From positions 19,773 through 83,772 of the forward strand of contig PQXC01000008.1 of assembly GCA_003194435.1 (NCBI GenBank): 64,000 nt of DNA, given 5' to 3'. A model generated the notes under the pieces. It was not told where the DNA came from. It worked only from the letters and a program-made list of their open reading frames with translations, and ran no database searches. Each line of letters starts with the position of its first letter. The stretch's first letter is position 1. This document shows, in pieces, positions 30,645 to 58,212 of this stretch. The position numbers and the translations under genes are program-made. Source of the DNA: Candidatus Methanophagaceae archaeon (lineage in GTDB: Archaea; Halobacteriota; Syntropharchaeia; Alkanophagales; Methanospirareceae).

Positions 30645-31721
30645 ATGAAGATAAGGGCATCGGTGCCTGCAAAGGTGATATTATTCGGTGAGCATTTTGT
30701 GGTATATAACAAACGAGCACTTGCAACCGCATTAAACCTGCGACTCTCTGTTGAAGTCTCTGGTAGGGGCAAGGATAAGAGTGGCTATCATCTCTACATT
30801 GAGAATATACCCTCTTTCGGGTTCCAGATGGAATTGGCAGAAGGGAAGGCGCAGCCATTTATAAATTATGAAGGTGCATCAAGCGCTATTGCGTATGTCA
30901 GAGGCGCAATTGAGTATCTTGAATCGAAATATGGTATAGAAGGCGGTGTGGAGATGAGAATAAAATCCGATATACCGCTTTCCGCCGGCTTGGGCTCTTC
31001 CGCTGCAACTTCTGTCGCCACCATCGCCGCACTCAGGAGATATTTCGGTGTGGATAGTGATAGTGGAGAACCAACCCCAAAACTGGAAGAGATAAGGGAG
31101 GATGCACACCATGTAGAGAAGGCGATTCAGGGCAATGCCAGCTCTGTGGATACCGCTATTTCGACCTATGGGGGCTACGTAATGATAGAGAATGGAGAAG
31201 TGAAGCGCCTGAATCTACCCGCGATAGACCTGATTATAGGCACTATCGGCTGTATCCCGCTGGGTGTGAGTGTTGAGCGAATATCGGAACTGAGCCTGAA
31301 GACGAAGAAGCTCGTTGAAGCTGTTAAAACACGGAGAGAAGCATTTAAAAGCGTATTTGAACACATCTTCAACGCCTCTGACGAGCTAACAAAAGAGGCA
31401 ATCCTGGCACTGGAACAGCGTGATTTTTATCGCCTCGGCAGCTTGATGAATATAAATCATGGCTTGCTCGATGCCATAGGAGTCGTTCCTCGCCGGTTAA
31501 GTGAGCTGGTGAAGCTGTCACAGGAGTTGGGTGCACCTGGAGCGAAGGTGACAGGTGCAGGTGGTCTGGACGAGCTGGGAGGTGCAGGCTCTGTTATGGC
31601 ACTGCCGCCGCCAGGCGACTCAAATGGCGCGATAAAGATAAAAACCGCTATGGCACTTACTGGTGCACTCGCGATGGTTTTGAAGACGAACGCAAAAGGG
31701 CTGATTGTTGAATCTGTTTGA
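30645..31721 (+). CDS. mvk: Mevalonate kinase
   Basis: GHMP kinase motifs: KVILFGEHFVVY and PLSAGLGSSAATSVATIAAL. Confidence 0.8.
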   Translation: MKIRASVPAKVILFGEHFVVYNKRALATALNLRLSVEVSGRGKDKSGYHLYIENIPSFGFQMELAEGKAQPFINYEGASSAIAYVRGAIEYLESKYGIEGGVEMRIKSDIPLSAGLGSSAATSVATIAALRRYFGVDSDSGEPTPKLEEIREDAHHVEKAIQGNASSVDTAISTYGGYVMIENGEVKRLNLPAIDLIIGTIGCIPLGVSVERISELSLKTKKLVEAVKTRREAFKSVFEHIFNASDELTKEAILALEQRDFYRLGSLMNINHGLLDAIGVVPRRLSELVKLSQELGAPGAKVTGAGGLDELGGAGSVMALPPPGDSNGAIKIKTAMALTGALAMVLKTNAKGLIVESV

Positions 31722-33009
31722 AATGAGCGAGATTATCGGGAGTTATGGCTCAGGAGCAGAAACAGGAGCAGGAACAAGAGCAAGAGTCCACATAGAGACC
31801 TTTGGCTGCACTGCAAATGCCGGCGATACGCAGAAACTGCGCGCTATATTGAAGAGGAGTGGATATCAACTGGTAACGGACTATAAAAAAGCCGATTGTG
31901 TCATCGTGAACACATGCACAGTGACGAAGCGGACGGAACTGAATGTGGTGAAGCGGCTGGAGGAACTGAAGAAGCAGGGCAAGCATGTAATCGTAGCCGG
32001 CTGTATGGCTGCGGCACAGCCCGAACTGGTGAAGAGCGTTCTGGGGAAGGATACAATTATGATAACGCCTGAAGAGCTATACCCGGTTATGGATTTTGAT
32101 TTTGACAACAACTCCTCCGTGGTTGGTATAATCCCGATATCAATGGGCTGTCTCGGAGAATGCACCTATTGCATTGTGAAGAGAGCGAGGGGGAGACTGA
32201 AGAGCCTGAGTCCCGATAGGATATGCAGCGCGTTAAGGTCCGCAGTGGCGGCTGGTGTGAAGGAAATAAGAATAACAGCCCAGGATTGTGCCGCTTACGG
32301 GTTCGACCGCACGGATATGGGTATGGATATGGCTGTGAAACTACCTGAGCTCCTGCGGATGCTGACCGAAGTGGAAGGCGATTTTAGAATTCGTATAGGC
32401 ATGATGAACCCCTTCACACTACTCTGCATCATAGATGAGCTCCTTGAGGCTTTTGAATCCGATAAGGTGTTCAAGTTCTTCCACATACCGGTTCAGTCGG
32501 GCTCTGATAAGGTGCTAAGCGATATGCGCAGGAATTACAAAGTCGCTGACTTCGTAGAGATAGTGAGAAGAATAAGGAGGCGATTCCATTACTGCACCAT
32601 CTGTACAGATTTTATCGTTGGATTTCCAACAGAGGATGAGGATGATTTCCGGGCGTCACTGCAGCTACTGGAGGAAGTGAAGCCTGAGAAGGTGAACATT
32701 ACGCGATTCTCACCGCGACCGGGGACGGAGGCATCGAAACTCAAGGACATGCTGGCTCGCGATAAGAAGATGAGGTCGCGAACGATGTCGGCGATTTATC
32801 ACAGGATGGCACTTGAAGCCAATAACCAACTGATAGGAGCGGAACTACCGGTTCTGGTTACCGAACGCGGTGATAAAGGCGGTGTGATTGCCCGTGACCC
32901 ATCTTATAAGACGATAATATTGGAGGAGGATTTGCCGCCCGGTTCATTCCATAAGGTGCGTGTGAAGGATGCGAGGAGCACTTATCTGGTTGCCTCTGTG
33001 ATTTCATGA
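31705..33009 (+). CDS. Radical-SAM methylthiotransferase, MiaB/MtaB-like (tRNA t6A37 methylthiotransferase-type)
   Basis: N-terminal MTTase domain (IETFGCTANAGDT), radical-SAM CLGECTYC, C-terminal TRAM-like region. Confidence 0.7.
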   Translation: MLNLFEMSEIIGSYGSGAETGAGTRARVHIETFGCTANAGDTQKLRAILKRSGYQLVTDYKKADCVIVNTCTVTKRTELNVVKRLEELKKQGKHVIVAGCMAAAQPELVKSVLGKDTIMITPEELYPVMDFDFDNNSSVVGIIPISMGCLGECTYCIVKRARGRLKSLSPDRICSALRSAVAAGVKEIRITAQDCAAYGFDRTDMGMDMAVKLPELLRMLTEVEGDFRIRIGMMNPFTLLCIIDELLEAFESDKVFKFFHIPVQSGSDKVLSDMRRNYKVADFVEIVRRIRRRFHYCTICTDFIVGFPTEDEDDFRASLQLLEEVKPEKVNITRFSPRPGTEASKLKDMLARDKKMRSRTMSAIYHRMALEANNQLIGAELPVLVTERGDKGGVIARDPSYKTIILEEDLPPGSFHKVRVKDARSTYLVASVIS

Positions 33010-35142: not shown

Positions 35143-35382
35143 ATGGCAACAAGAGAGGAAGATTGGCTAAGACAAGCAAAGAGAGACCTGGAGCATGCCA
35201 GGCATGCTCTTGAGGATAGAGATTATGAATGGTCTTGTTTTGCTGCTCAGCAGGCAGCGGAAAAAGCGGTAAAAGCGCTTTATCAGAAACTGGGCGCTGA
35301 TGCGAGGAAATTATCGCGTTCTGTGAAGATAAGATACTTCGATAAGAAGTTACAAATACAAAATAATTGTAAATTTCATTAA
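35143..35382 (+). pseudogene. Truncated HEPN-domain gene (N-terminal half only)
   Basis: EDWLRQAKRDLEHARHALEDRDYEWSCFAAQQAAEKAVKAL is the typical HEPN N-terminus. The ORF ends before the expected Rx4HxY region. No MNT partner adjacent. Confidence 0.45.
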
Positions 35383-35483
35383 AATGAATTGGTAATATTT
35401 AAAACAAAAGTTACTGATAAACTAACTTTTAAAAGTCTACTTTGAATTTGATTTTTAATTGTAGGGTAGTAAGGGTGTACAAA

Positions 35484-36707
35484 ATGGCTACAATCTTGGC
35501 AACGGGTTTGTGTGAAGGTGAAGATAGTGCAGCAACGGCTGAAGAGGCTGTACGGCAGGCGAAGGATAAATTGGAGAGGAGTGCCTGTAATGCAGCAGTG
35601 GATATGTCCATCGTATATTGCTCCAGCAGATATGATTATCAGGAGGTTATAGATGTGGTGAGGGAGGAAACGAACAAAGCACCCCTGTTAGGCTGCTCCA
35701 CTGCTGGTGAGTTTACAGAATGGGCGGTGGGAAATGGGGGTATTGCCGTAGGTCTGGTCTCTTCTGATGATATAAAGTTCTTCACTTCCATGGTTGAGGG
35801 TGTGAAAGAGGACCCGGAGCTCGCAGTCAGGACTGTAGCAAACGAATTTCCATCGAAATTCGACGACGGTTATTCTCATCTTTGTGCCATTATGCTCCTT
35901 GATGGGCTGGCAGGAGTTGGTGAAGAGGTTACACTGTTGGCGTCTTCTGCATTCAACCAGATATTCGGCAAGAATGTGATGCTTGTGGGTGGTGCTGCGG
36001 GAGACGACCTGAGATTTGAGACGACCACGTTATTCTCCGATAACAGGGTTGCAAGTGATGCACTCAGTGTGTGCTTGTTGGCGTCAAAGAAGCCTTTCTT
36101 CACCGGCGTACAGCATGGGCACGTACCTGTTAGCCCGCCCTTACATATAACGAGAGCGGACGGCTGTGTATTGTATGAAATAGAAGGCAGACCGGCGTGG
36201 GAGGTATGGAAAGAGCAGACCGCAGAAGCAGCACGCAGTATAGGAATAGACACCGATAAACTGGAGGAACCTGATGCCATAGGTACGTATCTAATGCGTT
36301 TTGAACTCGGTTTACCTACCAAATCCGGACAATATAAGATTCGAATACCCCTGAGTAAGAACGAAGATGGTTCCTTAAATTTCGGGTGCACTATCCCGGA
36401 AGGTGCTGTATTCAGATTAATGGAAAGTAAACAGGCATATCAGATTCAATCAGCACGAGAGGCAGCGGAAATAGCCATGATGAATGCCAATGGTAATGTG
36501 GAGATCGCAAGTGCTTTCATATTCGATTGCGCCTGTCGTAGCTTGATTCTTGGCGATGAGCTCTGCAAAGGTATAGGTCAGTTCAAATCGGTACTTGGCA
36601 ACATTCCTATGCTTGGCTGCGGGACATACGGTGAGATATGCATGGAACCAGGTCAGTTCAGTGGTTTTCACAACACCGCTTCGGTGGTCTTGCTTATACC
36701 AAAATGA
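35484..36707 (+). CDS. FIST-domain sensor protein (FIST_N + FIST_C)
   Basis: LLGCSTAGEFTEWAVGNGGIAVGLVSSDD block typical of FIST; ~408 aa. Confidence 0.5.
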   Translation: MATILATGLCEGEDSAATAEEAVRQAKDKLERSACNAAVDMSIVYCSSRYDYQEVIDVVREETNKAPLLGCSTAGEFTEWAVGNGGIAVGLVSSDDIKFFTSMVEGVKEDPELAVRTVANEFPSKFDDGYSHLCAIMLLDGLAGVGEEVTLLASSAFNQIFGKNVMLVGGAAGDDLRFETTTLFSDNRVASDALSVCLLASKKPFFTGVQHGHVPVSPPLHITRADGCVLYEIEGRPAWEVWKEQTAEAARSIGIDTDKLEEPDAIGTYLMRFELGLPTKSGQYKIRIPLSKNEDGSLNFGCTIPEGAVFRLMESKQAYQIQSAREAAEIAMMNANGNVEIASAFIFDCACRSLILGDELCKGIGQFKSVLGNIPMLGCGTYGEICMEPGQFSGFHNTASVVLLIPK

Positions 36708-36710
36708 TGG

Positions 36711-37607
36711 ATGATGAGTGAACGAGAGGAACTGGAGAGACTGGTTCATGAACAGACCAAAGGATTGAAGCAGCGTAAGCGGGTGGAAGAGATACTTAAA
36801 TATTGCATTCCTGCATCAACTCATCCTTCTATTGATATCAGCAACCTTAAACTCACTGATATAATAAATGTTACACTATTACAGGAATTACAGGACGAAT
36901 TCGCATCCTGTCATGGGGTGGCTTCGCTCATCTTCTCCGCCAGCGGTGAGCCAATAACAGAACCGAGCAACTTCAGTGAGTTTTGCACCTTGCTACGCTC
37001 AACAGAGAAAGGTAGAGCAAATTGTATGCGTTCGGATTCCAGATTGGCGAAAGAAACAGTTAAGGGTAAGCCTGCAATCACTCACTGTCAGAACTTTCAG
37101 GAGATACTCGATGGAGCAGTTCCGATATTTATTGGTGAGCAGTTTGTTGCCTCATGGGGTATCGGGCAGGTATTGACAACACCGCTCGATGAGCAGCGGG
37201 TACGTCAGTATGCGCGTGAAGTAGGATTAGAAGAAGCGAAGCTTGTGGCGGCATCGAAGAAGTTGAATCAGAATCTGATGCCACGTACTAAATTCAAGAA
37301 ACTGATAGACTTCATGGCTATACTTGCAGAGGATATCTCGCTACTTGGGCTACAGAATTTACAGCAGGCACATGTCATTGCGGAATTAGAGCAAACGGAA
37401 GAGGCACTTTATAGATATATGGAAGAGCTTGAGCGGTTCAATCGTCTGGCGGTAGGTCGCGAATTGAGGATGATAGAACTGAAGAGGGAGGTGAACCAGC
37501 TTTGTGAACGATTGGGCGAGAAACAACCTTATGACCTCTCGTTTGTGGAGGATACGCAATCAAAAAGGATAAGCGGTTTAGACGGGGTATGTAATAATGG
37601 AACATAA
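36711..37607 (+). CDS. PocR-domain sensor protein with C-terminal coiled-coil module; no output domain
   Basis: PocR-like block (VASLIFSASGEPITEPSNFSEFC...RANCMRSD...HCQNF...AVPIFIGEQFVASWGIGQV). The C-terminal RFNRLAVGRELRMIELKREVNQLCERLGEK is shared with the 39068 gene. Confidence 0.5.
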   Translation: MMSEREELERLVHEQTKGLKQRKRVEEILKYCIPASTHPSIDISNLKLTDIINVTLLQELQDEFASCHGVASLIFSASGEPITEPSNFSEFCTLLRSTEKGRANCMRSDSRLAKETVKGKPAITHCQNFQEILDGAVPIFIGEQFVASWGIGQVLTTPLDEQRVRQYAREVGLEEAKLVAASKKLNQNLMPRTKFKKLIDFMAILAEDISLLGLQNLQQAHVIAELEQTEEALYRYMEELERFNRLAVGRELRMIELKREVNQLCERLGEKQPYDLSFVEDTQSKRISGLDGVCNNGT

Positions 37608-37869
37608 ATTAGCAAACCAGCATACAGAAGAGGAATTGGAAGAAGAGGCGATAGACCTGAGGGGGGACGTATGCCCCTATCCACTGATTATGGCGATAAA
37701 AAGGGTTAGCGAAGTGGAAGACCGCTTGAGAGCAGGCAGAATCGTATTAAAATTCATCGTGGACCATCCGCCATCCACTAAATCTATTCCCCGTGAAGCA
37801 AAGAAGAGGGGGCATCAAACAGAAATAGAGAAGACGGGTGCTGCGGAATGGGTAATAACCGTAAAATGA
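37597..37869 (+). CDS. TusA-like sulfurtransferase / TsuB-like protein
   Basis: DLRGDVCPYPLIMAIKRV (CPxP motif), 90 aa. Confidence 0.7.
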   Translation: MEHKLANQHTEEELEEEAIDLRGDVCPYPLIMAIKRVSEVEDRLRAGRIVLKFIVDHPPSTKSIPREAKKRGHQTEIEKTGAAEWVITVK

Positions 37870-39086
37870 AAATGAGGATGAGGGAAGCATTAAGGGAGGA
37901 TCTTGAAAAAATATTCGGGAAAGCATGGCCCGCCTGGCTCGGCGGATTGCTGGTGGGCATGTTCAACGTATTCGAATACATAATCAAGAAGCCCTGGGGA
38001 ATCACATCCGCCACTTCACGGTGGTCAGGCTGGATACTAAACAGTTTTGGCGTTGATACCCCTAATTGGCTTTACTTTCAACAGATGAAGACATTTCAAA
38101 ATATTCCGTTCTTGTATGACGGCGATGCTATCAACGTGGGGGTGGTATTGGGTGCGTTCATTGCCGCTTCTCTCTCGTATGAATTCGCTATTCGACGAGC
38201 ACGGAGCAATAGAGTGTACATGCAGGCATTTGCCGGCGGTATCCTGATGGGTTATGGTGCACGGCTGTGCAATGGATGTAACTTAGGGGCACTCATCTGT
38301 TCCATTCCTTCGCTTTCATTAAGCGGCTGGATTTTCTGGCTTGGCTTAGCCTTAGGTGCTTACATAGGTATAAAATTTATCGTCTGGCAAATTACTCGAA
38401 TGACGGTAAGCAGCCGACCAATGAGCACAACGGAAAAGAGATCAGGACTGAACGAACAGCGGCAGACAATTATTGGGCTAACAGGTATTCTCGCAGCGGT
38501 AGCAATTACCCTATTTTATTCTTACTTCACCAAAGCAGAGGTAGTAATCCTCTTTTTAATCGGGCTGGCGTTTGGTGTAATAGTGCAACGCAGCCGTTTT
38601 TGCTTCGTTACCTCTTTTAAGGACGTCTTTATCAGCAGAGACGCAACAATATTTAAAGCGATTATCATCGCCATGCTGGTAGCCACCATTGGTTTCTCGC
38701 TGATTATGTATAAACTTGTTCCCGATCCGTCTATCGGCGAGCTGCCCGCACATGCGAAGATAAACAACATTGGCAGTCCGTTCGGGATTCCGCATCTGGT
38801 TGGCGGCATCCTGTTCGGGCTTGGGATGACATTAGCCGGTGGGTGTGCCTCAGGAACGCTGTACCGGATGGGAGAAGGTTATGTCAGTCTATGGGTAGCG
38901 TTTCTTGGGACACTGGTGGGCTATGTTTTTATTGCACATAACTGGCAGTGGCTGTATCCCAATCTGCTTGAAGGCACGAAAGTCTGGTTGCCGCGGTATT
39001 TAGGCTGGGGCGGGTCCGTGTTCCTGACACTATCGGCACTGATGGGTGTGTATGCCCTGATTACATATTGGGAGGCAAGTGGCTGA
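37848..39086 (+). CDS. YeeE/YedE family transporter (TsuA-like thiosulfate/sulfur-compound transporter)
   Basis: About 9 TM segments. Two conserved Cys-containing half-repeats, LCNGCNLGAL and GGCASGTLYRMGEG. Confidence 0.7.
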   Translation: MGNNRKMKMRMREALREDLEKIFGKAWPAWLGGLLVGMFNVFEYIIKKPWGITSATSRWSGWILNSFGVDTPNWLYFQQMKTFQNIPFLYDGDAINVGVVLGAFIAASLSYEFAIRRARSNRVYMQAFAGGILMGYGARLCNGCNLGALICSIPSLSLSGWIFWLGLALGAYIGIKFIVWQITRMTVSSRPMSTTEKRSGLNEQRQTIIGLTGILAAVAITLFYSYFTKAEVVILFLIGLAFGVIVQRSRFCFVTSFKDVFISRDATIFKAIIIAMLVATIGFSLIMYKLVPDPSIGELPAHAKINNIGSPFGIPHLVGGILFGLGMTLAGGCASGTLYRMGEGYVSLWVAFLGTLVGYVFIAHNWQWLYPNLLEGTKVWLPRYLGWGGSVFLTLSALMGVYALITYWEASG

Positions 39087-40360
39087 GTATGGGCAGAAAA
39101 CAATTAAAATATATAGAACTGGACGATGAATCAGGGAGGTTATATGCGGCTGGAGTGCCTCATTTGCTTTTCCCCGTCAATATAGTGGAATTAATGCGTG
39201 ATATTCTACGAAAAATTGCTGGAAATGCAGCAGCAGAAGCGTTGATGTACCGAATAGGCGAGGAAGTCGGAAGGGAATATGCGAAACGTGTAAAAAAGAT
39301 TCTTGACGAAAGTGAGGTGGAACTGGACAAGGATGCACTGCTGACGCAGGTCTATTGCACCACCATGCAGTCAGGCTGGGGAGGGATAAAAAAAATCAAA
39401 TGGATCAACCCAGAAGATGGCAAGATAGAGATTCGGGGCAGAAACTTCCCCTGTATGGAACTGGAAAACTGCAATTGCGCACTGGAGCGAGGAATATTAG
39501 CAGGGGCATACCATGAAATCGTTGGCAAGAGGATATATTACGCCCTGACCAAAAAGACAAGAGATGAGGTTGTAATCAATTCACTTGAAGAGATCCCGCC
39601 CGAGGTACTGAGGGATGAAGAGTTAGCACTGCTGAGCAAAAGGGAACTGGAGGAGATAATTAGAGAGAAAACCCGTGAGTTGGAGAAATCGCGAATTGCG
39701 ACATTGAACATAGCGCAGGACATTGAGAATGCGAAGAAGGAGCTGCAAGAATCTGAAGAGAAATTGCGGGCTATCGTGGAAAGCGCGAAAGATTCCATAT
39801 TCATAAAAGACCGGCAATTAAGATACGTATTGGTTAATCCTGCTATGGAACGTTTGTTCGGGCTGCCAGCCGAAAAGATGCTTGGGAAATCGGATGCCGA
39901 ATTATTTGGTGAAGAGAGAGTGAAGCATATTGAGGAGGTGGATAGTCAGGTGCTTCAGGGCGAAACCGTAGAGGACGTGTATTCCAAACCTGTTGGAAGA
40001 GAAATAAAAACGTTTCATACGATAAAAGTGCCATTGCGAGATGCTTCCGGCAAGATAAGCGGGTTATGCGGTATCGAGCGTGACATAACCGAGCAGAAAC
40101 GGATGGAGGATAAGGTGAAGGAGGCAATGACGAAACTTAAGCGGTTCAATCGTCTGGCGGTCGGTCGCGAATTGAGGATGATAGAACTGAAGAGGGAGGT
40201 GAACCAGCTTTGTGAACGATTGGGGGAGAAGCCAAGATACAACCTGTCATTTGTGGACAATAAAATTACAGGTGGAAATGAAAACGAAAATGAAAATAAA
40301 AAATTACGAATTGGGTTGTTCGCAAATGCGAACGTAGGAGAAGAGAAAAATGAAAGATAA
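39068..40360 (+). CDS. V4R + PAS sensor protein with the same C-terminal coiled-coil module; no output domain
   Basis: V4R-like NCNCALERGILAGAY; PAS (IVESAKDSIFIKDRQLRYVLVNPAMERLFGLPAEKMLGKSD); C-terminal RFNRLAVGRELRMIELKREVNQLCERLGEK. Confidence 0.5.
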   Translation: MGGKWLSMGRKQLKYIELDDESGRLYAAGVPHLLFPVNIVELMRDILRKIAGNAAAEALMYRIGEEVGREYAKRVKKILDESEVELDKDALLTQVYCTTMQSGWGGIKKIKWINPEDGKIEIRGRNFPCMELENCNCALERGILAGAYHEIVGKRIYYALTKKTRDEVVINSLEEIPPEVLRDEELALLSKRELEEIIREKTRELEKSRIATLNIAQDIENAKKELQESEEKLRAIVESAKDSIFIKDRQLRYVLVNPAMERLFGLPAEKMLGKSDAELFGEERVKHIEEVDSQVLQGETVEDVYSKPVGREIKTFHTIKVPLRDASGKISGLCGIERDITEQKRMEDKVKEAMTKLKRFNRLAVGRELRMIELKREVNQLCERLGEKPRYNLSFVDNKITGGNENENENKKLRIGLFANANVGEEKNER

Positions 40361-41210
40361 TAGTGAGATGGATTTTAAGGAAGCGAGTAAGAGATTTGTG
40401 GCTGTGTTTGGGGAAAGAGAACCACTGATTCGACCCGTAGGTGTAAAACTAATCCCAAAAGGAAGAGGAAGAGAAGTCGAAGTCCCGAAGGGTACGAGGT
40501 CTATTGAGGAATATCAGGGCGTTCCGTGGTGTGAAGCGGTGAGAATTGCAGCTACGAAAGGTGAGGTGGTGGTAATAACCAAAGAGAATGTGGGTTGCCC
40601 AGCAGCAGCCATCGCGCTTGGTCTCGTTGACCAGTATCAAAAAGAGCCGCTGGGCGGTAAACGGAAATACACCGATTTGATGGCTGAACCTGCTGCACCG
40701 GCTGACTTCACCAATGGACTGGTCTATGCCTGCAAAGATAGCGGGAACATGCAGTTCGCTCTCTTCGGGAATGATGATACGGGACGCTATGAAACATTGG
40801 GAGCAGCGCTAAAAGCTGTTTCCGGAATGAAGGCAATTCAACCTGCAATTATGGACGCTGCGGTGGCATACCAGGCGGAAAATCTGGACCTGGACCTCAA
40901 GCCTGACGTGGTGATTCTCGCATTAAAACCAAAGCAGGCACTGCTTGCGATTCAGGGCTACAATTTCCTATCCGGTAATCGCTTTGAAATGAGCACCATC
41001 GGTATTAGAGGCGTATGTGCTGATTTAACTGCTCAGCCTTTCATAGAGCAAAAGCTAAACGGCTCTTTATTCTGTCTCGGTGCGAGAGCGCTCGGAGGTT
41101 GGGAAGGTAACCTGCTGGGATTGGGCATGCCATACTCAATATTCCAGCAGATGGTCTCTGGCATGGAAAGGTCAGCGACCGGATTTCCGTATAAGGCATA
41201 TCCTGAATGA
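40350..41210 (+). CDS. Hypothetical protein (possibly DUF169-like)
   Basis: 286 aa; the conserved GCPAAAIALGL block is only weakly suggestive. Confidence 0.3.
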   Translation: MKDNSEMDFKEASKRFVAVFGEREPLIRPVGVKLIPKGRGREVEVPKGTRSIEEYQGVPWCEAVRIAATKGEVVVITKENVGCPAAAIALGLVDQYQKEPLGGKRKYTDLMAEPAAPADFTNGLVYACKDSGNMQFALFGNDDTGRYETLGAALKAVSGMKAIQPAIMDAAVAYQAENLDLDLKPDVVILALKPKQALLAIQGYNFLSGNRFEMSTIGIRGVCADLTAQPFIEQKLNGSLFCLGARALGGWEGNLLGLGMPYSIFQQMVSGMERSATGFPYKAYPE

Positions 41211-41221
41211 GAGACTGTGAT

Positions 41222-41266
41222 AGTGAAAGTGAAAGTGAAAGTGAAAAGTGAAAAGTGAAAGGGGGG
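41222..41266. repeat. (GTGAAA/GTGAAAA)x6 microsatellite followed by a G6 tract, immediately upstream of the ATG at 41271
   Basis: gtgaaagtgaaagtgaaagtgaaaagtgaaaagtgaaagggggg, seen directly. Confidence 0.8.
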
Positions 41267-41270
41267 ATAA

Positions 41271-42776
41271 ATGGGCAAAAGGGAGAAAAACAGCCTGAGG
41301 GAACTCGTAGACCTTGATGAACTGCAATCCATTCAGGATGACTTTGCAAAAACCGTTGGCACTTCTTCTGTTATTTTCACACCAGAAGGTGAGCCTCTAA
41401 CGCAGTTCAGCAACCCTACCGGCTTTTGCTCTCTGATACAATCAACAGAGGAAGGCAGACGGCGCTGTTTTCAATCGTTCATGGATATGAGCCGAAAGGC
41501 ACTGGAGCTAAAAGAGCACAAAATCCTCTATTGTTTTGCACATGGTGGTCACTTTGTCGCACCGATAATCATCAATGGCGAGCATAAAGGAACGATGTTC
41601 GCCGGGCAATTTATACCACGGGAGTTCTCCAGGGAGCAACTAACCGAGCTAAGGCGAATAGCGGAGGAGATAAACATAGACCCGGAACAGCTAATAAAAG
41701 AAGCGAAGCGGATGCGTGTGGTGGAAGAAGAGAGGGTCTGGAATTATTCGAGTTTATTGTTTCATATAGTGAGCCTTATTGCAAGGCTGGGTGCGCAAGC
41801 GGCTGAACTGAATCGTGCCAATGATGCATTGCAAAGGGCGCATGACGAACTGGAAATCCGCGTACAGGAACGCACGGCGGAACTGGCGAAGAGTAACGAA
41901 CAACTGAGACGTGAGATAGAGGAACGAAAGCGGATGGAGAAGGAGCGGGAAGAAGCCCACCTCGCAGTGCTGAACATAGCAGAAGACCTCAACGAGGCGA
42001 GAATAGAAGCGGAGAATGCACGGAGGGAACTGGAAGAGCTGACACGAAAGCTTGAGAAATCGAATCAGGAGCTGCAAGATTTCGCTTATATCGTCTCACA
42101 CGACCTTAAGGCACCGGTGCGAAAAGTGGCGATGTTTGGAGACCTGCTGAAGGAATCGCTGGCAGGTCGGCTGGACGAAGACGAGCAGGAGAACTTCGAG
42201 TTCATGATTGAAGGCGCCACACGAATGCAGCAGTTGATTGATGCTCTGCTTACCTATTCACGTGTACATACGAGGGTAAAGCCACCGCAGCGAGTGGATC
42301 TGAGGAAGGTGATAGAGGACTTGAAGGAGATAGAACTGGCGTTACCACTGGAGGAGACAGGGGGCAAGGTGGAGATAGAGGAGCCACTGCCATCTGTTTA
42401 TGCCGACCCTTCACAGGTGTACCAGCTATTGCAGAACCTGATAGCGAATGGGTTGAAGTATCACCGTGAGGGAGTTCCACCCGTGATCACAATTCGTGGT
42501 AAACAGCTTGGGGACTGGGTTCGTATTGAGGTTCAGGACAATGGGATTGGCATACCCGAAGAGCATCATGAGAGGATATTCGGGATGTTCCAGCGGCTTC
42601 ATGCCGATGATAAGGGCACGGGAGTGGGTCTTGCGGTCTGTAAAAGAATTGTGGAGCGGCATGGCGGGGAGATAGGAGTTGAGTCCACGCCAGGAGTTGG
42701 TTCCACATTCTGGTTCACCCTCCCGAGTGCTCCGAACCTGAATGAAGAACTAAAAACTAAAGGGAGTGAGGAATGA
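41271..42776 (+). CDS. Sensor histidine kinase with N-terminal PocR domain
   Basis: PocR block; HisKA FAYIVSHDLKAPVRKV; HATPase_c GTGVGLAVCKRIVERHGGEIGVESTPGVGSTFWFTLP. Confidence 0.75.
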   Translation: MGKREKNSLRELVDLDELQSIQDDFAKTVGTSSVIFTPEGEPLTQFSNPTGFCSLIQSTEEGRRRCFQSFMDMSRKALELKEHKILYCFAHGGHFVAPIIINGEHKGTMFAGQFIPREFSREQLTELRRIAEEINIDPEQLIKEAKRMRVVEEERVWNYSSLLFHIVSLIARLGAQAAELNRANDALQRAHDELEIRVQERTAELAKSNEQLRREIEERKRMEKEREEAHLAVLNIAEDLNEARIEAENARRELEELTRKLEKSNQELQDFAYIVSHDLKAPVRKVAMFGDLLKESLAGRLDEDEQENFEFMIEGATRMQQLIDALLTYSRVHTRVKPPQRVDLRKVIEDLKEIELALPLEETGGKVEIEEPLPSVYADPSQVYQLLQNLIANGLKYHREGVPPVITIRGKQLGDWVRIEVQDNGIGIPEEHHERIFGMFQRLHADDKGTGVGLAVCKRIVERHGGEIGVESTPGVGSTFWFTLPSAPNLNEELKTKGSEE

Positions 42777-42779
42777 AGA

Positions 42780-43634
42780 ATGAGAGAGGTCATCGGTGAG
42801 AAGCGTACGCATATAGATAGAAAAGAGGGACGGGTGTGCAATATCTTGAACAGTGAACGAGCGATATTATTAAAGGAGCTTGAACGTTCAAATCGAGAAT
42901 TGCGAGAGCTCGTTTTTGTCACTTCGCATCATCTACACGAGCCCACAAGGAAGATATTCACCTATGGCAATATGCTCTTCAACTCGCTCCGGGATAAAAT
43001 AGATACAGATGACCGCGAGAATCTCCAGTTCATAATTGATGGTGCCCGGAAGATGCAGGCGCTGGTGGATGATCTGCTCCTGTATTCAGAGGTGATCATG
43101 CGTAAAGAGAGGGCACGGGTGCCCGTTGATCTGAACGAGATAGTGGAAAAACTGAGGACTAAGGAGCTGGCTTCTTTGCTTGACGCGACTCATGGTATCA
43201 TCAAAGTGCCGGAGCCACTACTCCCTGTTCAGGCTGATCCCGTACAGGTACGATTGCTCATGCAGAACCTGATTGCAAACGGGTTGAAGTTTCATCGTGT
43301 GGGTACGATACCCGAAGTAACAATCAGGAGCTCACGCTGTGGAGATAAAGAGGTTCGCGTGAGTGTGGAGGATAATGGAGTGGGAATATCCAGGGAATAT
43401 CATAATAGAATATTCAGTCTGTTTCATCAGCTTCAGCCATCTGAGGATGGCACTGGAGTTGGACTGGCGATCTGCAAGAAGGTGGTGGAGCAGCATGGAG
43501 GAGCTATAGGAGTCGAATCCACGCCGGGCAGGGGTTCTACTTTCTGGTTCACTTTACCAATTGCAAGCAGGAATTGCACTATCCCTGTAATTGTAAGTAA
43601 AGAAATTCATATTGAGGAGGTGAAGAAGAAATGA
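42780..43634 (+). CDS. Histidine kinase (HisKA + HATPase_c; no obvious sensor domain)
   Basis: FVTSHHLHEPTRKI H-box; GTGVGLAICKKVVEQHGGAIGVESTPGRGSTFWFTLP. Confidence 0.7.
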   Translation: MREVIGEKRTHIDRKEGRVCNILNSERAILLKELERSNRELRELVFVTSHHLHEPTRKIFTYGNMLFNSLRDKIDTDDRENLQFIIDGARKMQALVDDLLLYSEVIMRKERARVPVDLNEIVEKLRTKELASLLDATHGIIKVPEPLLPVQADPVQVRLLMQNLIANGLKFHRVGTIPEVTIRSSRCGDKEVRVSVEDNGVGISREYHNRIFSLFHQLQPSEDGTGVGLAICKKVVEQHGGAIGVESTPGRGSTFWFTLPIASRNCTIPVIVSKEIHIEEVKKK

Positions 43635-44077
43635 GAAGAATAGACCCTGCTATAGTATTGCTGGTGGAAGACGACCCGGGCGACCAGAAACTGGTAAAAA
43701 TCTCACTGAAGAGGCAGCGCATAGCGAACGAACTGCATATAGTGAGCAGTGGAGAGGAGGCGCTGGACTTTTTATACCAGCGTGGTAAGTACAACGGCGG
43801 AACGCCCCGACCCGACCTGATTCTGCTGGATTTGAATATGCCGGGTATGGGTGGGAAAGAATTTCTGAGACGGATAAAGAAAGACGGAGATTTGAAAAAG
43901 ATTCCCGTGGTTATCCTGACGACATCTGATTCCGAGCGGGATATCATAGATAGCTATCATCTGCAAGCCTCAGGCTACGTGAAGAAGCCAGTGGACCTGG
44001 AGGATTTCAAGAATGTAATGAAAGAGATAGGGGAATACTGGTTTGTGATGTGCAAACTGCCCCCAAAGGAGGTGTGA
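43631..44077 (+). CDS. CheY-like single-domain response regulator (receiver)
   Basis: VLLVEDDPGD...LILLDLNMPGMGG...VVILTTS...GYVKKP receiver motifs with the phospho-acceptor Asp. Confidence 0.8.
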   Translation: MRRIDPAIVLLVEDDPGDQKLVKISLKRQRIANELHIVSSGEEALDFLYQRGKYNGGTPRPDLILLDLNMPGMGGKEFLRRIKKDGDLKKIPVVILTTSDSERDIIDSYHLQASGYVKKPVDLEDFKNVMKEIGEYWFVMCKLPPKEV

Positions 44078-44080
44078 AAA

Positions 44081-45235
44081 ATGATGAACTACGAATTGGA
44101 AACGAAATTAGAGGAGCAGCCAGAGGAGAAGCCGCTGAAGATTCTCGTATGCGATGATGACCCTTCGTTCCGGAAGTTGGTACGTACATATTTGCATCAG
44201 GGTGCAGATAGGAGATTCAAGTTGATAGAAGCCGGCAATAAGGAGGAGATACAGCAGGCACTCGATAATGAGGCTATTGACATCATCTTTATGGACATAA
44301 TGATGCCTGACAAATCGGGTATGGAGTGGCTTCGTGAGATTGTTCAGGGTAAGATAGCACCGGTAGTCATGCTTACAGGGTTTGGTAGTGAAGATATTGC
44401 AGTCCAGTCAATTCGTAATGGTGCTATTGATTATATCCCAAAAGACCACCTCACAAAGGACCGGTTATGGGGTACTATAAAAGCAACACTGGAGACATGG
44501 AAGCGGATGCAGGCGGAGGATGAGAAGAAGAAGCTGATGTGCGAACTGGAGGCTAAGAATACCGAACTGGAACGATTCACCTATACGGTATCACACGACC
44601 TCCGCTCTCCTCTACTCACTATCCGTGGTTTTGTATCCATGTTGCGTGACGATTTAGAGGAGAACGACCGTGAGAAGGTAGCTAAAGACCTTGATTATAT
44701 AGATAATGCAGCGAAGAAGATGGAACAGCTCCTGGACGATACATTGCAATTATCCCGTATCGGGCGTGTGGCGAATCCACCCGAGGATGTGCCATTCGCA
44801 GAGATAGTAGACGATGCACTGGAACAAACAATGGAACAGATATTGGAGAGCGGTGTGAAGGTCACAGTGGCAGATGATTTTCCTGTTGTTCATGTTGACC
44901 GTATGAGAATAGCGGAGGTGCTGGTGAACCTCATAACGAACAGCATAAAATATATGGGCGACCAGCCGAATCCGGAGATATTTATCGGTTATCGGAAGGA
45001 CGGTGACGAAGTTGTCTTCTTCGTGCGGGACAATGGCATAGGGATAGACAAGAGTCAACATGAGAAGGTATTCGAGCTTTTCTATAAGCTCGACAGCAGT
45101 ACCAAAGGCACAGGTGCCGGGCTCGCCATTGTGAAAAGGATAATAGAAGTACATGGGGGACGCGTCTGGATAGAATCAGAGAAAGGGAAGGGGTGCACTG
45201 TTTGTTTTACACTTCCTGTTGTTAAGTTAAAATAA
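44081..45235 (+). CDS. Hybrid response regulator / histidine kinase (REC + HisKA + HATPase_c)
   Basis: ILVCDDDPSF...IIFMDIMMPDKSGME receiver; FTYTVSHDLRSPL H-box; GTGAGLAIVKRIIEVHGGRVWIESEKGKGCTVCFTLP. Confidence 0.75.
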   Translation: MMNYELETKLEEQPEEKPLKILVCDDDPSFRKLVRTYLHQGADRRFKLIEAGNKEEIQQALDNEAIDIIFMDIMMPDKSGMEWLREIVQGKIAPVVMLTGFGSEDIAVQSIRNGAIDYIPKDHLTKDRLWGTIKATLETWKRMQAEDEKKKLMCELEAKNTELERFTYTVSHDLRSPLLTIRGFVSMLRDDLEENDREKVAKDLDYIDNAAKKMEQLLDDTLQLSRIGRVANPPEDVPFAEIVDDALEQTMEQILESGVKVTVADDFPVVHVDRMRIAEVLVNLITNSIKYMGDQPNPEIFIGYRKDGDEVVFFVRDNGIGIDKSQHEKVFELFYKLDSSTKGTGAGLAIVKRIIEVHGGRVWIESEKGKGCTVCFTLPVVKLK

Positions 45236-45264
45236 ACAATCAGGGTCTATGTCTATATCTATAT

Positions 45265-48109: not shown

Positions 48110-51100
48110 TTATGCCCTCCTGCTGTTATTTCCATCACGCATCCTATTATACATATTCTGCGACTCTGAAAAAATATGAATAAGCCATCTACTCCCTTCT
48201 CTACTCTCCAAACGCTCAATCGCATTTCTTAAAACCTCCTCATCCATGTATCCCATTTCATTCAATCTCTCCTTTATATCATTCACAGAATCACTCCCTG
48301 AAAAAGAATGCAATAGTAGAATATGTCCTGCAACCACACGCTCACTTTCCTCTCCTAATCCTAATATCCAACCACAAGCCCTTATTGCATACTCTATTCT
48401 TCGCTCATTCGTGAAAAGATTTCCCGCACGCAGCATATCCTCCCTCGCTCTACCATACTCGCCTAATCTCACATAAGCGAGACCTCTGTTGTAGTATGCT
48501 TCCGCAAGATCAGGATTCAGTTTTATCGCCTTGTCGTAATCTTCTATCGCTCTATCATACTCGCCTAATCTCACATAAGCGAGACCTCTGTTGTAGTATG
48601 CTTTCGCATAATCTTTATTCAGTTCTATCGCCTTATTGAAATCTTCTATCGCTCTACCATACTCGCCTAATTCCGCATAAGCGAGACCTCTGTTGCTGTA
48701 TGCTTTCGCATAATCTTTATTCAGTTCTATCGCCTTATTGAAATCTTCTATCGCTCTACCATACTCGCCTAATCTCACATAAGCGAGACCTCTGTTGCTG
48801 TATGCTTCCGCAAAATCAGGATTCAGTTTTATCGCCTTATTGAAATCTTCTATCGCTCTATCATACTCGCCTAATTCCGTATAAGCGACACCTCTGTTGT
48901 TGTTGTATGCTTCCGCATATTCATTTAGTTCCAGAGATGTGCTATATGCCTTAATTGAACTCTCAAAATCCTTCTGTTCATATAAAGCATTTCCGAGATA
49001 GAAGAAATGTGCTGCAAGAGAGAGGCGAGCGATATCCTTTCCAGGAGCTTCAACATGTTCCACTTTTTTGAAATAATTGTAAGCGAATAGCAGCATGCGA
49101 GCATCGGGAGGTGCATTTTCTGCGGCATCCGCTATCAGGTAGAAGAAGCTCATATTTTTACCTTCATCAAAAGCCTTTTTTATCTCCTCTCTTATCACTG
49201 CCTTCGCATCCATTAAATCTAAAGAGGCTTCAAGGAACTTTTCAGCAAGTTCTCTATCTTCTATTCCGCCTTCTATCGCACTATTTATCGCATCTCGCCA
49301 ATACTGTGATAATGAATATAACCTTCCTTCTCTCTGCAGATATTTTTCAAGCGCCTCTTTCTGCTCTTTTGCCTCATTTCCTTGTGCAATTCTTTCATAA
49401 ATCGCATCATAAAGGAATATTGAGAAAATTCTGAGCTTTGAGATTGTGATTAAGAGCTTAATGAAAGTCATATCACTTTCATCATTACGCAATAATTTTC
49501 TTATTGTGTCCATCAGAATGTTCTTAACACCTTTTGGCAATCTCTCTATTTCTTCCATGCTGAGTGTTCTATTGTGATGTTCATGCATCAAATGTCGTAT
49601 GTAGAAAGGGGCGTTGTTTGACCTCTCAACCAATAATTGCATCGCTTTGTTCAGCACTTCGCTCATTCTTCCGCTCTCAATCATTTCACATGCTTCATCT
49701 GGAGGAATGCCAGCAATACTTACATTGAAATACTTTATGTAGCTCGCAATGATCTTCCACATATCATCCGTTTCAGGTTTTACTTCATAAGGTATCAGTT
49801 CAAACCCTCTATCATAAACAACTCTCTGAAGAATGTCCTTTTCAGAATTTCTCATCGTTATAATCATTTTTGCACGGTTTCTCTTTGCAAAATCAACAAT
49901 TCTCTCGCATTTATTCCTTAACGCTTCTTCCACATTGCCATTCGCTTTCAAATGTCCGAGAGCATCAATTACAATGAATTTCCTATATTCATGCTCAACC
50001 TGTGATATAGATGATTCGTATTCGTATGAATTAAGGAATATAACTTCTTCCTTCCCCCGCTCGATAATACGCTCAACAAGGAGAAGCATGTATGTCGTCT
50101 TTCCCACACCTATATCGCCGTGTATAGCGAGAATCTGCCCCTCCGAAGGCTCTTTAAACTCATAATAATTATATACGGTTGATTTGAACTCTTCCCATGT
50201 CTGAAATCCCTTTTTGTAGGGCGTTTCTAAAAATCTATCATCTTCAACTACATTCTTCAATTCATCTTCATTTCTCACGCGCTTATACGCCTCTATTGTT
50301 CTTATTGGAGGTCTTTCTTCAAGCTCAGGAGGTTCAATAACATTAAAATCAAGTTCAAAATGCAAATTGTATCGCTCAAGAACATCTCTTACACTATTCA
50401 ATTCCTCTTCGATTTTCTCTTTCACTTTATCTGCGACATTGTTTTCTTTGTGGTCTTTGTATTTCAGGAGCATTTCTACATATATCTCGCTTCCTTTTAT
50501 CTCTACTCTCTCCACTATTTCGTGTTTCCAGTATTCTTCCTGGGATTCCTGCGGGATTTGTGGTAGACGCCTGTAATCTTCTGGGGGTAGGCGATTCTTA
50601 CCGCAGTCAAGGGCATCTGCGAGCCTGAGCAATGCTGCTAAAAATCTTGTGCGAACATTCTCACCTGCGATATGAATTGTGCTCTCCTCATCAACATCAT
50701 TTATGGCAACCTTACTGCTGTGAGCACGGCAAATCCATTGAATAATTGTCGCTTCTGTTTTACCACTTAACTCTATTTCTCTCAAATGCTTGCTGATATA
50801 TTCAGCACTTCGCTTGTGATGTTCTTTCCTGATTCTATTGCAAACTTCAGGATCATTAATATCCTCACCTTCCCGCATTAACATCCCGATGTCATGGAGC
50901 CAAGCACTGCATTTCAGCAGGAAATTCTCATATTCACTTAGATTCACACCTTCGGTGAGTTTATCCAGTATTTTGATTACTGCCTCTGAATGCCCTGGAC
51001 CGTGGTCAGTGTAATATCTGAAAAGACCTTGAGAGTGTATATATGGTAGTTTTCGCATGCAAAACTCCTTTATTTTTTCAAGTCTTTCACCGAGATTATG

Positions 51101-56528: not shown

Positions 56529-56571
56529 TTTTTTTCACCTCCTAATTTTATTATCCCGCTTTTCTAATATT

Positions 56572-57858: not shown

Positions 57859-58212
57859 ATTACCTCCTAATCTTTTTCTATAGCGACTGAATGCCATATC
57901 TTTGATTGGCTGAAGTTATAAAAAAGGTTTACGGTATATTCCGCAGTCTACAAAATGTACTCTACATACTCTATAAAACCAGCGAACAAGAACAAGCACC
58001 TTTACGGCTACATCTCTATGTTGCCCAATAAGCACCCTTTGACTATCATGGTACTCCAGTTTGTGATTTTCGAACTCCTCATCGCTCACCGATAGCACTA
58101 TCTCCTTATTATCCTCGGTTATCGTGACTGGTGCGAGGTATTGCACGCCTAGCAGGTTTTGACGTAGAAACCGCAGGAGGAGGTGAGGAAGGAATTATGC
58201 TATATAAAGTTT

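Follow-up and report, generated by a model that had tools for sequence, protein, structure and literature searches.

A TusA–YedE-type channel cassette within a putative cytoplasmic phosphorelay island of an ANME-1 archaeon, and a terminal module shared by its kinase-less sensors

The 64,000 nucleotides (nt) analysed here (the window) come from contig PQXC01000008.1 of a metagenome-assembled genome (MAG) of a thermophilic Ca. Methanophagales archaeon, a member of the anaerobic methanotrophic (ANME) group ANME-1. Between positions 35442/35484 and 45235, the window carries an island of ten open reading frames (ORFs), all co-directional and on the + strand (g1 to g10; ORF listing and Pfam/NCBIfam scans; Table 1), in which the genes for a TusA-like sulfur carrier (g3) and a YeeE/YedE-family channel (g4) lie among genes for sensors, histidine kinases and receivers. 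The island can be read, tentatively and at a little short of an even chance, as an operon-like, cytoplasmic multi-input phosphorelay in which g3 and g4 import a reduced sulfur signal and sensors ending in a shared helical tail, the module MOD, act on kinases in trans. A wider reading, which we would sooner doubt than accept, takes MOD to be a widespread trans-acting output of kinase-less PAS, PocR, V4R and REC sensors docking on kinases, possibly by means of a His-to-Arg mimic of the DHp H-box, and the YedE-topology channel and TusA to have been recruited as a dedicated phosphorelay importer in a clade made up of ANME-1, Methanosarcinales, Syntropharchaeia and one bacterium.

In the proposed circuit, g4 would let in inorganic sulfur in a reduced form, for instance thiosulfate or polysulfide (selenium being less likely), and g3 would capture the imported species on the single cysteine of its CPYP motif. 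The sensor g5, encoded right after the channel, would read either the imported compound or the loaded carrier, and g2 and g5, which have no catalytic output, would use MOD to modulate g7 and g8, both soluble kinases, in trans, with additional inputs supplied by the FIST protein g1, the PocR domains of g2 and g7, and the DUF169 protein g6. The kinases would phosphorylate the receiver g9 and the receiver-kinase g10, and the output would pass through protein-protein contact, as in most archaeal systems, the island encoding no DNA-binding regulator. The channel and its carrier would be the sole contact of the island with the outside.

The genes are tightly packed, with gaps from g1 to g10 of 3, −11, −4, 2, −11, 60, 3, −4 and 3 nt (the stop of g2 and the start of the TusA gene overlap by 11 nt, as do the stop of g5 and the start of g6). 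This matches the block of ten closely spaced, co-directional genes that had been described in an earlier note made from the letters of this DNA alone, and the ANME-type host proposed there is indeed Ca. Methanophagales. The FIST, PocR, TusA-like, kinase and receiver assignments of that note were recovered by Pfam, whereas g6, which it left unnamed, is a DUF169 protein; both of the histidine kinases that it counted are present, but g7 carries a PocR sensor of its own, the second PocR domain of the island. A hydropathy analysis of the ten genes placed transmembrane segments in g4 alone (eight segments), all of the sensors and kinases being soluble.

The channel passes the Pfam model for Sulf_transp (PF04143) with 208.9 bits against a threshold of 27, and its assignment to the YeeE family is thus borne out by a hidden Markov model. 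The narrower label of the earlier note, a TsuA-like protein of the thiosulfate-uptake type, does not hold. g4 fails both TsuA models (NF041049, 112.5 bits for a cutoff of 645; NF052577, 133.6 bits for a cutoff of 400), its halves are swapped relative to Spirochaeta thermophila TsuA (6LEO; query residues 230–351 align on 6–115, and 65–166 on 222–321), and its 406 residues exceed the 330–350 aa of TsuA, so that the co-linear TsuA architecture is absent and orthology to TsuA was ruled out on the basis of the scores and the swapped halves. The best curated model is that for the selenium-linked YedE/FdhT (NF033796), on which g4 aligns co-linearly and over the full length (22–410 on 2–381 of 387), with a score of 235.7 bits that also remains below the cutoff (350). 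The three cysteines essential in TsuA are nonetheless all present: the motifs QRSRFC, GGCASG and GCNLG of g4 align on C22, C91 and C293, and these three residues, together with a fourth cysteine, are invariant among the eight lineages described below. The carrier g3 passes the TusA model (PF01206, 54.7 bits, threshold 28.6), and its only cysteine lies within the CPYP motif, the surrounding G(D/E)VCPYPL being unchanged in the eight lineages; its best NCBIfam models, YedF (39.6 bits, cutoff 79) and TsuB/YeeD, score under their cutoffs.

The g3–g4 pair thus resembles two characterized systems in different respects. With TsuA/TsuB (YeeE/YeeD; PDB 6LEO and 8J4C; PMC11073785), it has in common the Pfam family, the three essential cysteines and an adjacent TusA-like partner with a CPxP motif, but it differs in falling short of the curated cutoffs, in the permutation of the repeat halves, in its gene order (TusA then channel) and in the signalling genes around it. 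TsuB/YeeD cleaves thiosulfate and becomes persulfidated (PMC11073785). With YedE/FdhT–YedF (NF033796, NF008242; PMC5322559), it shares the best-scoring curated models, a full-length, co-linear alignment and a length of about 400 aa, but the cutoffs of both models lie above its scores. The pair is therefore orthologous to neither characterized subfamily, g4 being nearer to YedE/FdhT than to YeeE/TsuA, and yet it has the features that mark a channel and persulfide carrier of the TsuA/TsuB kind.

Near-identical clusters are present on 13 metagenome contigs, and a broader comparison was based on diverged relatives of g4 and on a scan of 185,579 species-representative genomes. In all eight lineages with a channel at least 63% identical to g4, the genes follow the order TusA, channel, V4R-like sensor, with four small inserted genes between the last two in L007. 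The window encodes FIST, PocR-MOD, TusA, channel, V4R-PAS-MOD, DUF169, PocR-kinase, kinase, REC and REC-kinase. A Methanosarcinales MAG (L011/L012, channel 81% identical) encodes FIST, HAMP-PAS-MOD, TusA, channel, V4R-PAS-GAF-MOD, DUF169, PocR-kinase, REC and REC-kinase, and L007 (80%) has V4R-PAS-MOD, TusA, channel, the four inserted genes, V4R-PAS-GAF-MOD, kinase, FIST, kinase, REC and REC-kinase. L098 reads sensor-MOD, TusA, channel, V4R-MOD, DUF169, and L176 (Ca. Syntropharchaeia, 67%) reads PAS-MOD, TusA, channel, V4R-PAS-HisKA. The shorter versions consist of TusA, channel, V4R-PAS-MOD, sensorless kinase and REC in L014 (63%) and in the bacterium Ca. Makaraimicrobium thalassicum (L009/L013, 66%), and of TusA, channel, V4R-MOD and REC in L177 (65%). 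Kinase or receiver genes follow wherever the contig is long enough, those of L098 and L176 stopping early, and a MOD-ending sensor is encoded directly upstream of TusA in the window, L007, L011/L012, L098 and L176. The cluster is, thus, conserved, as opposed to the lack of conservation that the earlier note had named as grounds for abandoning its proposal.

Beyond this clade, the picture is different. The 77 loci with a channel 30–50% identical to g4 (Chloroflexota, Thermoproteota and others) mostly have the reverse order, channel then TusA; none of the 77 has a V4R-like sensor, few have kinase or receiver genes nearby, and no kinase was found within 3 kb downstream in any of 59 of these loci. 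The coupling of channel and signalling genes is therefore specific to the clade around g4, in which it is old enough to span several archaeal orders and has also crossed into one bacterium. The version in Ca. Makaraimicrobium thalassicum (Guaymas; L009/L010/L013) is a minimal one of five genes, lying near genes for a porin, S20, MurJ, UvrC, RF1 and SecA, and the 66% identity of its channel to that of ANME-1 indicates an inter-domain transfer of the cassette. Among the genes inserted between channel and V4R-PAS-GAF-MOD genes in L007 (11363–12501), there is a PDDEXK_3 gene and a toxin-antitoxin-like pair coding for a nucleotidyltransferase and an NTase-substrate-binding protein.

The TusA–channel–V4R-PAS trio is flanked in the window by two direct repeats of 127 nt, 89% identical and 2708 nt apart, which encode MOD in g2 and g5. 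In an environmental variant (L004, 2255–7741), exactly this trio is tandemly duplicated, with about 2.7 kb between the copies, the PocR gene is truncated, and the first sensor copy is a hybrid of a g5 body and a g2-type tail. Unequal recombination between the two repeat copies would yield exactly such a product, which points to copy-number variation by this route; TusA, channel and sensor behave as one unit in evolution.

The N-terminus of g5, the sensor encoded after the channel, falls under the Pfam thresholds for both XylR_N (17.6 bits, threshold 23, E 0.003) and V4R (16.3 bits, threshold 31, E 0.011). A profile built from six g5 homologues matched the phenol-sensor domain of MopR in PDB (5KBE) with an E value of 2.3e-4 across 158 residues, and the V4R protein MJ1460 with an E value of 0.015, making V4R-PAS, the label originally given to g5, a reasonable one. 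The 801-aa sensor encoded 5' of TusA in L007 passes the V4R model of Pfam (35.4 against 31); its N-terminal domain, aligned with that of g5, is 18% identical to it. An AlphaFold2 model of g5 (predicted local distance difference test score 74.7) has an alpha/beta domain at residues 17–166, a long helix at 184–232, a PAS domain at 236–332, a second long helix at 334–377 and a disordered tail. Foldseek retrieved PAS/LOV proteins with J-alpha helices for this model, including effector-less short LOV proteins as the top matches and LOV-kinase chimeras, but these matches dominated the output and nothing was reported for the V4R-like domain, so that the link with MopR comes from the profile search. 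The V4R-like domain contains a cluster of three cysteines, PCMELENCNC, common to MopR/PoxR and MsvR; in MsvR, V4R cysteines mediate redox sensing in methanogens (PMC3729527; PMC5847659).

FIST genes, like that of g1, recur in the related clusters L007 and L011/L012. g1 was considered as a NosP orthologue and rejected, with 112 bits against a cutoff of 450 for the NosP equivalog model, and the likeness of the island to the NosP/NahK nitric-oxide sensing pair extends to the general FIST fold and the co-location with kinases alone. The DUF169 protein g6 contains five cysteines and no histidine, and has no relative in NCBIfam, nor in PDB by sequence. A MOD gene followed by a DUF169 gene, often overlapping it, is found in the window and in L011/L012, L096, L097 and L098, the next gene usually encoding a PocR protein; in L093, DUF169 comes after a HAMP-PAS gene truncated by the start of the locus. 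A nitrate-resistance cluster of Desulfovibrio has DUF169 next to genes for a kinase and for a TauE sulfite exporter (PMC4001038), and STRING links DUF169 to YedE (PMC5322559).

The two sensors g2 and g5, as the earlier note had seen, lack an output domain and end in a common helical module; in the proteins, this module is 68% identical across 59 residues (at residues ~240–285 in g2), and the two tails read ELERFNRLAVGRELRMIELKREVNQLCERLGEK(P/Q)xY(N/D)LSF. The consensus of MOD is ELERFNRLAVGRELRMIELKREVNEL..LG..PPY.L.F, with the near-invariant signature FNxxAVGRELRMIELKxEVN...G..P.Y. MOD has no Pfam match at E values up to 10 and occurs in no PDB chain, and no model covering it came up when g2 and g5 were scanned with NCBIfam at E values up to 0.01. 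In a search of 1.84 billion representative proteins, a profile made from 23 examples matched 9,039 clusters at E ≤ 1e-10 and 28,746 at E ≤ 1e-3, counts that are upper bounds because the profile also spans a common PAS-linker segment. The MOD core is present in 148 of the best 149 matches, the exception (P0252) having scored through 20 copies of the linker without MOD. In the 107 of these best matches in which the core motif could be placed, it is 30–59 residues away from the C-terminus, with a median of 35 between the GRE motif and the stop. The domains that accompany MOD in the best 149 matches are mostly PAS (116), followed by REC (15) and PocR (9), with HAMP, dCache and a CheB fragment also represented, and a kinase catalytic domain never occurs alongside MOD in this set.

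The position of MOD in relation to kinases is illustrated by a series of natural domain swaps among relatives of g5. In P0407, P0410 and P0470, a V4R-like domain and a coil are followed by MOD; in P0409, a V4R-like domain and the same coil are followed by a HisKA-HATPase resembling that of g7; and P0411, which adjoins the channel in L176, consists of V4R-like, PAS and HisKA domains. MOD therefore sits at the position of the kinase transmitter, and the junctions leading into the two are similar ('KLERSNRELQDFVYIVSHDL' for MOD and 'ELERFNRLAVGRELRMIELK' for the kinase). A weak alignment with the kinase H-box helix, given below, is no more than a hint of MOD as a pseudo-H-box in which arginine would replace histidine. 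Neighbourhoods were sampled at 80 metagenome loci found with the module (76 downstream neighbours; 25 loci with at least 3 kb downstream). Most of the MOD genes have a co-directional next gene at −46 to +20 nt, and a co-directional kinase gene lies no more than 3 kb downstream in 15 of the 25 loci with sufficient flank. Sensorless kinases of 281–315 aa are encoded directly after the V4R-PAS-MOD gene in L009/L013 and L014. Given this gene order and the domain replacement, MOD-ended proteins are best interpreted as kinase-less sensors that would act in trans on a neighbouring kinase. The search for one universal downstream partner family was unsuccessful, this possibility being rejected on the heterogeneity of the neighbours discussed below. 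Stand-alone ORFs of 69 and 96 aa, encoding barely more than the MOD helix, adjoin KaiC-family (PF06745) genes in L092 (6001–7503) and L095 (4860–6291).

MOD can be set against two known types of helical element. The S-helix (PMC1592074) is a segment of about 40 residues with an ERT signature between two domains, whereas MOD is terminal and has another signature, and it therefore lies outside this class. Short LOV and PAS-J-alpha proteins resemble g5 in that the PAS domain continues as a long helix at the C-terminus and no effector domain follows; MOD differs from both types in its own signature, with no counterpart in Pfam, NCBIfam or PDB. S-helix signatures of the ERT type are, by contrast, present in the linkers of g5 and g7 (QERTAEL in g7). 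A further coil motif, (A/T)(A/T/V)LN(I/L/M)x(E/Q)D, was observed at residues ~203–212 of g5 and ~232–241 of g7, and also at the N-termini of kinases encoded just 3' of MOD genes in L009, L014 (twice), L113, L120, L124, L133 and L173. It could be the counterpart of MOD.

The kinases and receivers of the island have the sequence features of a two-component phosphorelay. The H-boxes read SHDLKAP in g7, SHHLHEP in g8 and SHDLRSP in g10, with intact ATP-binding boxes in all three, and the receiver pockets of g9 and g10, read from the translations, are complete (acidic pocket, Asp, Thr and Lys), the three kinases and both REC domains scoring above the Pfam thresholds. g7 has Pfam matches to PocR (2e-41), HisKA (4e-10) and HATPase_c (2e-31), its PocR domain being 28% identical to that of g2. 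The terminal pair, a 148-aa REC protein followed by a REC-kinase, recurs in L007, L011 and L093; g10 aligns with the LvrB model co-linearly and over its full length, at 103 bits for a cutoff of 500. Archaeal two-component systems are characterized by cytoplasmic kinases (62%), REC-only regulators and signalling by protein contact, DNA-binding output being atypical (PMC5847659). The island resembles these cytoplasmic networks and LvrA/LvrB-type hybrids (Galperin et al. 2018, PMC5847659) in its soluble PocR/PAS kinases, its REC-only regulators, its REC-HisKA-HATPase hybrid and the absence of DNA-binding output. In a keyword search, this census was silent on the coupling of a sulfur channel and carrier to such networks and on MOD-terminated sensors, MOD having no name that could be searched for.

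The closest precedent for a signalling role of the channel is the SoxT1B–TusA–SoxR system of Hyphomicrobium denitrificans (PMC11582611), in which the YeeE-like SoxT1B, whose gene is close to tusA and which is proposed to work via TusA, is devoted to importing a signal for a regulator in the cytoplasm. Like the island, this system comprises a YeeE/YedE-family protein with three channel cysteines, TusA and cytoplasmic regulators; SoxT1B serves signalling rather than bulk uptake, and the flow from channel to TusA to cytoplasmic sensor is the same as that proposed here. A YeeE-like gene beside tusA and a cytoplasmic regulator, conserved together, was found in all eight lineages of the g4 clade. 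The two systems differ in several ways. SoxT1B is TsuA-like in length (330–350 aa) and topology, whereas g4 has 406 residues and swapped halves; the signal goes to an ArsR-type DNA-binding repressor in the SoxT1B system, and would go to a V4R-like/PAS sensor with kinases and receivers in the island. The host of the island is an anaerobic methanotrophic archaeon, unlike that of SoxT1B, and no HTH, ArsR, sox or shdr genes, as in the SoxT1B clusters, were found in the island or its annotated flanks.

A transporter gene co-transcribed with regulators is just as typical of a regulated target as of an input, and transporter genes often stand beside their own regulators. The g3–g4 pair might, then, be an ordinary importer for sulfur (or selenium) assimilation, controlled by the neighbouring sensors and kinases, with co-location reflecting autoregulated co-expression. 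This possibility is improbable rather than negligible: the curated families nearest to g3 and g4 function in uptake or metabolism, and 72 of the 77 distant YedE-like loci have an adjacent TusA without the V4R-like sensor, as would befit a stand-alone uptake unit. A regulated target is, however, difficult to reconcile with the lack of a DNA-binding regulator or other transcription factor in any of the eight related clusters, and with the placing of the channel genes, which are not at one end but interleaved and translationally coupled with sensor genes (−11, −4 and +2 nt). The V4R-like partner accompanies the channel in every lineage of the clade, even in the minimal bacterial version, and the three genes duplicate as a unit. 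For these reasons, the channel is taken here as an input to the phosphorelay. Several observations weigh against that proposal nonetheless. The YedE/FdhT model, the best for g4, is a selenium-linked one, and g4 remains below the cutoffs of both this model and those for TsuA. The ten genes contain no output component, neither an output domain nor a DNA-binding response regulator being found by Pfam/NCBIfam. L009, L014 and L177 have lost the cysteine cluster of the V4R-like domain, and thiol-based read-out by g5 is therefore not a general mechanism and was rejected as such. As far as MOD is concerned, docking on kinases is suggested by gene adjacency and domain replacement alone; the alignment of MOD with the kinase H-box helix by hhalign is weak (VGREL on VSHDL, 20% probability), and the downstream neighbours of MOD genes are heterogeneous, the 44 that matched no kinase, receiver, PAS or KaiC probe encoding GAF, dCache, solute-binding, MEDS and B12-binding domains according to Pfam.

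Other alternatives concern the signal or the partner of MOD. Selenium rather than sulfur could be the element handled, g3 and g4 being of the YedF/YedE type and the island sensing or managing selenium supply; YedF and YedE/FdhT are the best NCBIfam models of the two proteins, YedE is statistically tied to SelD-based selenium use, and STRING ties DUF169 to YedE (PMC5322559). Both scores nevertheless lie under their cutoffs, no selenium-utilisation gene (selD, selA, selB or a selenoprotein gene) was seen among the annotated genes of the window, ANME FdhA homologues have cysteine where other organisms may use selenocysteine (PMC9012536), and the habitat is sulfidic, making this explanation quite unlikely. 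A similarly small chance attaches to a circuit for hydrocarbons or other organic substrates, in which the PocR and V4R-like domains would bind small organics (alkane or alcohol derivatives, aromatics) and the sulfur channel would be incidental. The homology of the g5 N-terminus to the phenol-binding domain of MopR in the profile search is in line with this idea, as are the lineages concerned, which are oxidizers of methane or alkanes, and the prediction of Anantharaman and Aravind (2005), as cited in PMC5847659, that hydrocarbon derivatives are ligands of PocR and V4R; the hydrocarbon-responsive circuit of the earlier note would appear to go back to such old domain predictions alone. It would leave unexplained why the V4R-like sensor is so strictly tied, and in this clade alone, to TusA and channel, no hydrocarbon-metabolism genes were found in the island or in the adjoining annotated genes, and V4R domains also serve in redox sensing through cysteines, as in MsvR of methanogens (PMC3729527). 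Finally, MOD might be a docking tail for KaiC-like ATPases, which have been proposed as archaeal signalling hubs, and not for histidine kinases, an arrangement that would be compatible with the phosphorelay proposed here. KaiC-family genes are the immediate neighbours of two of the three short, stand-alone MOD ORFs, and four of the 76 downstream neighbours are KaiC-like, but a KaiC-like gene was found in only one of the 25 loci with 3 kb of flank, against the 15 with a kinase, and there is no KaiC gene in the annotated flanks (about 12.6 kb upstream and 14.9 kb downstream) or in the related clusters; the likelihood of such a tail is very slim.

Table 1. Genes, intergenic gap and direct repeats of the island (positions in the window).
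Feature	Position	Strand	Details
g1, FIST_N and FIST_C, stand-alone, soluble	35484..36707	+	407 aa; Pfam E 6e-40, 6e-30
g2, PocR followed by C-terminal MOD helix, no enzymatic output	36711..37607	+	298 aa; Pfam PocR 4e-41
g3, TusA-like sulfur carrier	37597..37869	+	90 aa; Pfam TusA 9e-15
g4, YeeE/YedE-family channel, YedE-type topology	37866..39086	+	406 aa; Sulf_transp PF04143 1.7e-61
g5, XylR_N/V4R-like, S-helix coil, PAS, MOD, no enzymatic output	39089..40360	+	423 aa; Pfam PAS_4 2e-21
g6, DUF169, soluble	40350..41210	+	286 aa; Pfam DUF169 2e-37
Sole sizeable intergenic gap of the island (g6–g7)	41211..41270	.	GTGAAA-like tandem units, GTGATAGTGAAAGTGAAAGTGAAAGTGAAAAGTGAAAAGTGAAAGGGGGG
g7, soluble kinase with PocR, S-helix, HisKA, HATPase	41271..42776	+	501 aa; Pfam
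g8, soluble histidine kinase without sensor domain	42780..43634	+	284 aa; HATPase_c 2e-27, HisKA 0.0012
g9, stand-alone CheY-like receiver	43631..44077	+	148 aa; Response_reg 6e-21
g10, REC-HisKA-HATPase hybrid, LvrB-like architecture	44081..45235	+	384 aa; Pfam REC 3e-20, HisKA 1e-15, HATPase_c 4e-28
Direct repeat copy 1, encodes MOD in g2	37428..37554	.	127 nt; repeat search
Direct repeat copy 2, encodes MOD in g5	40136..40262	.	127 nt; repeat search

The ORF of g1 opens with a TTG at 35442, but its likely start is the ATG at 35484, the start called on related contigs; the likely starts of g4 (ATG 37866, with an alternative at 37848) and g5 (ATG 39089) are also those called on related contigs. 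The 60-nt gap between g6 and g7, with its tandem units, could be an internal promoter, a regulatory site or element, or a slippage-prone tract. Seven proteins of the window, five of them encoded by island genes, are identical to NCBI entries in the range PXF52559–PXF52572, from an 86.6-kb contig of the Ca. Methanophagales MAG, with locus tags starting at C4B56_05440; the annotation of five of these seven entries is 'hypothetical'. The genes upstream of the island encode Mch, Pus10, a MiaB-type methylthiotransferase and an HAD hydrolase, and those downstream encode HisH, CarA and a methyltransferase; with such housekeeping flanks on mixed strands, the island forms a discrete block. Rfam and tRNA scans of the window gave no match.

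Some of the neighbouring genes are of interest in their own right. The radical-SAM methylthiotransferase at 31705–33009 (UPF0004, Radical_SAM and TRAM domains) is C4B56_05415 by locus-tag arithmetic, and the C4B56_05415 methylthiotransferase of a thermophilic Ca. Methanophagales has been characterized biochemically (PMC10702137; locus tag corrected in PMC13629477). Just upstream of g1, a 79-aa ORF (35143–35382) matches positions 2–52 alone of the 117 of the HEPN profile; it is kept at the same position on the near-identical contigs L001–L003 and L005, and may represent either a remnant or a HEPN protein of minimal size. A gene on the − strand (48110–51121), in a stretch of low GC content (about 39–40%), encodes a 1003-aa protein with HD-CE, a STAND-type NTPase domain (nSTAND3) and many TPR repeats, which looks like a STAND protein of the conflict or defence type. 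Two neighbouring cohesin-domain proteins, one of which also has PD40 beta-propeller repeats and a dockerin, are encoded on the − strand at 54807–57897, and are parts for a cellulosome-like surface assembly in an ANME-1 genome.

None of the domains of the island is new, and relays of several kinases in the cytoplasm are nothing unusual in Methanosarcinales-like archaea. The earlier note had suggested an undescribed circuit in which sensors feed kinases. The feeding of kinases by the sensors is something that we infer, and the claim of novelty stands for the coupling to a phosphorelay but not for the YeeE-like signalling importer, a concept published in 2024 for SoxT1B, TusA and the ArsR-type repressor SoxR (PMC11582611). 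What is new is a distinct clade of YedE-topology channels coupled to a two-component relay across archaeal orders and in one bacterium, the V4R-like sensor that partners this clade, and MOD, a tail module of kinase-less sensors that is widespread, uncatalogued and preferentially encoded upstream of kinase genes. Literature searches found no paper joining YeeE/YedE with histidine kinases or ANME-1 with TusA, or discussing ANME signalling, and the words two-component, histidine kinase, PAS domain, thiosulfate and polysulfide are all absent from the main comparative-genomics paper on ANME archaea.

To our knowledge, the means by which ANME archaea sense their sulfidic habitat and the sulfate reducers that they live with are essentially undescribed, and the conserved cassette linking a sulfur channel and carrier to a phosphorelay is a concrete candidate for environmental sensing in these organisms. 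With this cassette, the idea of signalling through a YeeE-like importer, recently shown with ArsR repressors of aerobic sulfur oxidizers, is extended to two-component systems in archaea, and the five-gene version of Ca. Makaraimicrobium is small enough for reconstitution in vitro. MOD marks thousands of 'output-less' sensors left unexplained by current domain databases, and the identification of its partner would clarify their signalling route. If the wider reading is correct, anaerobic methanotrophs would have a means of detecting the sulfur species, zero-valent or reduced, that pass between the partners of their syntrophy, and MOD would define a large hidden class of 'third-component' sensors, numbering thousands in bacteria and archaea.

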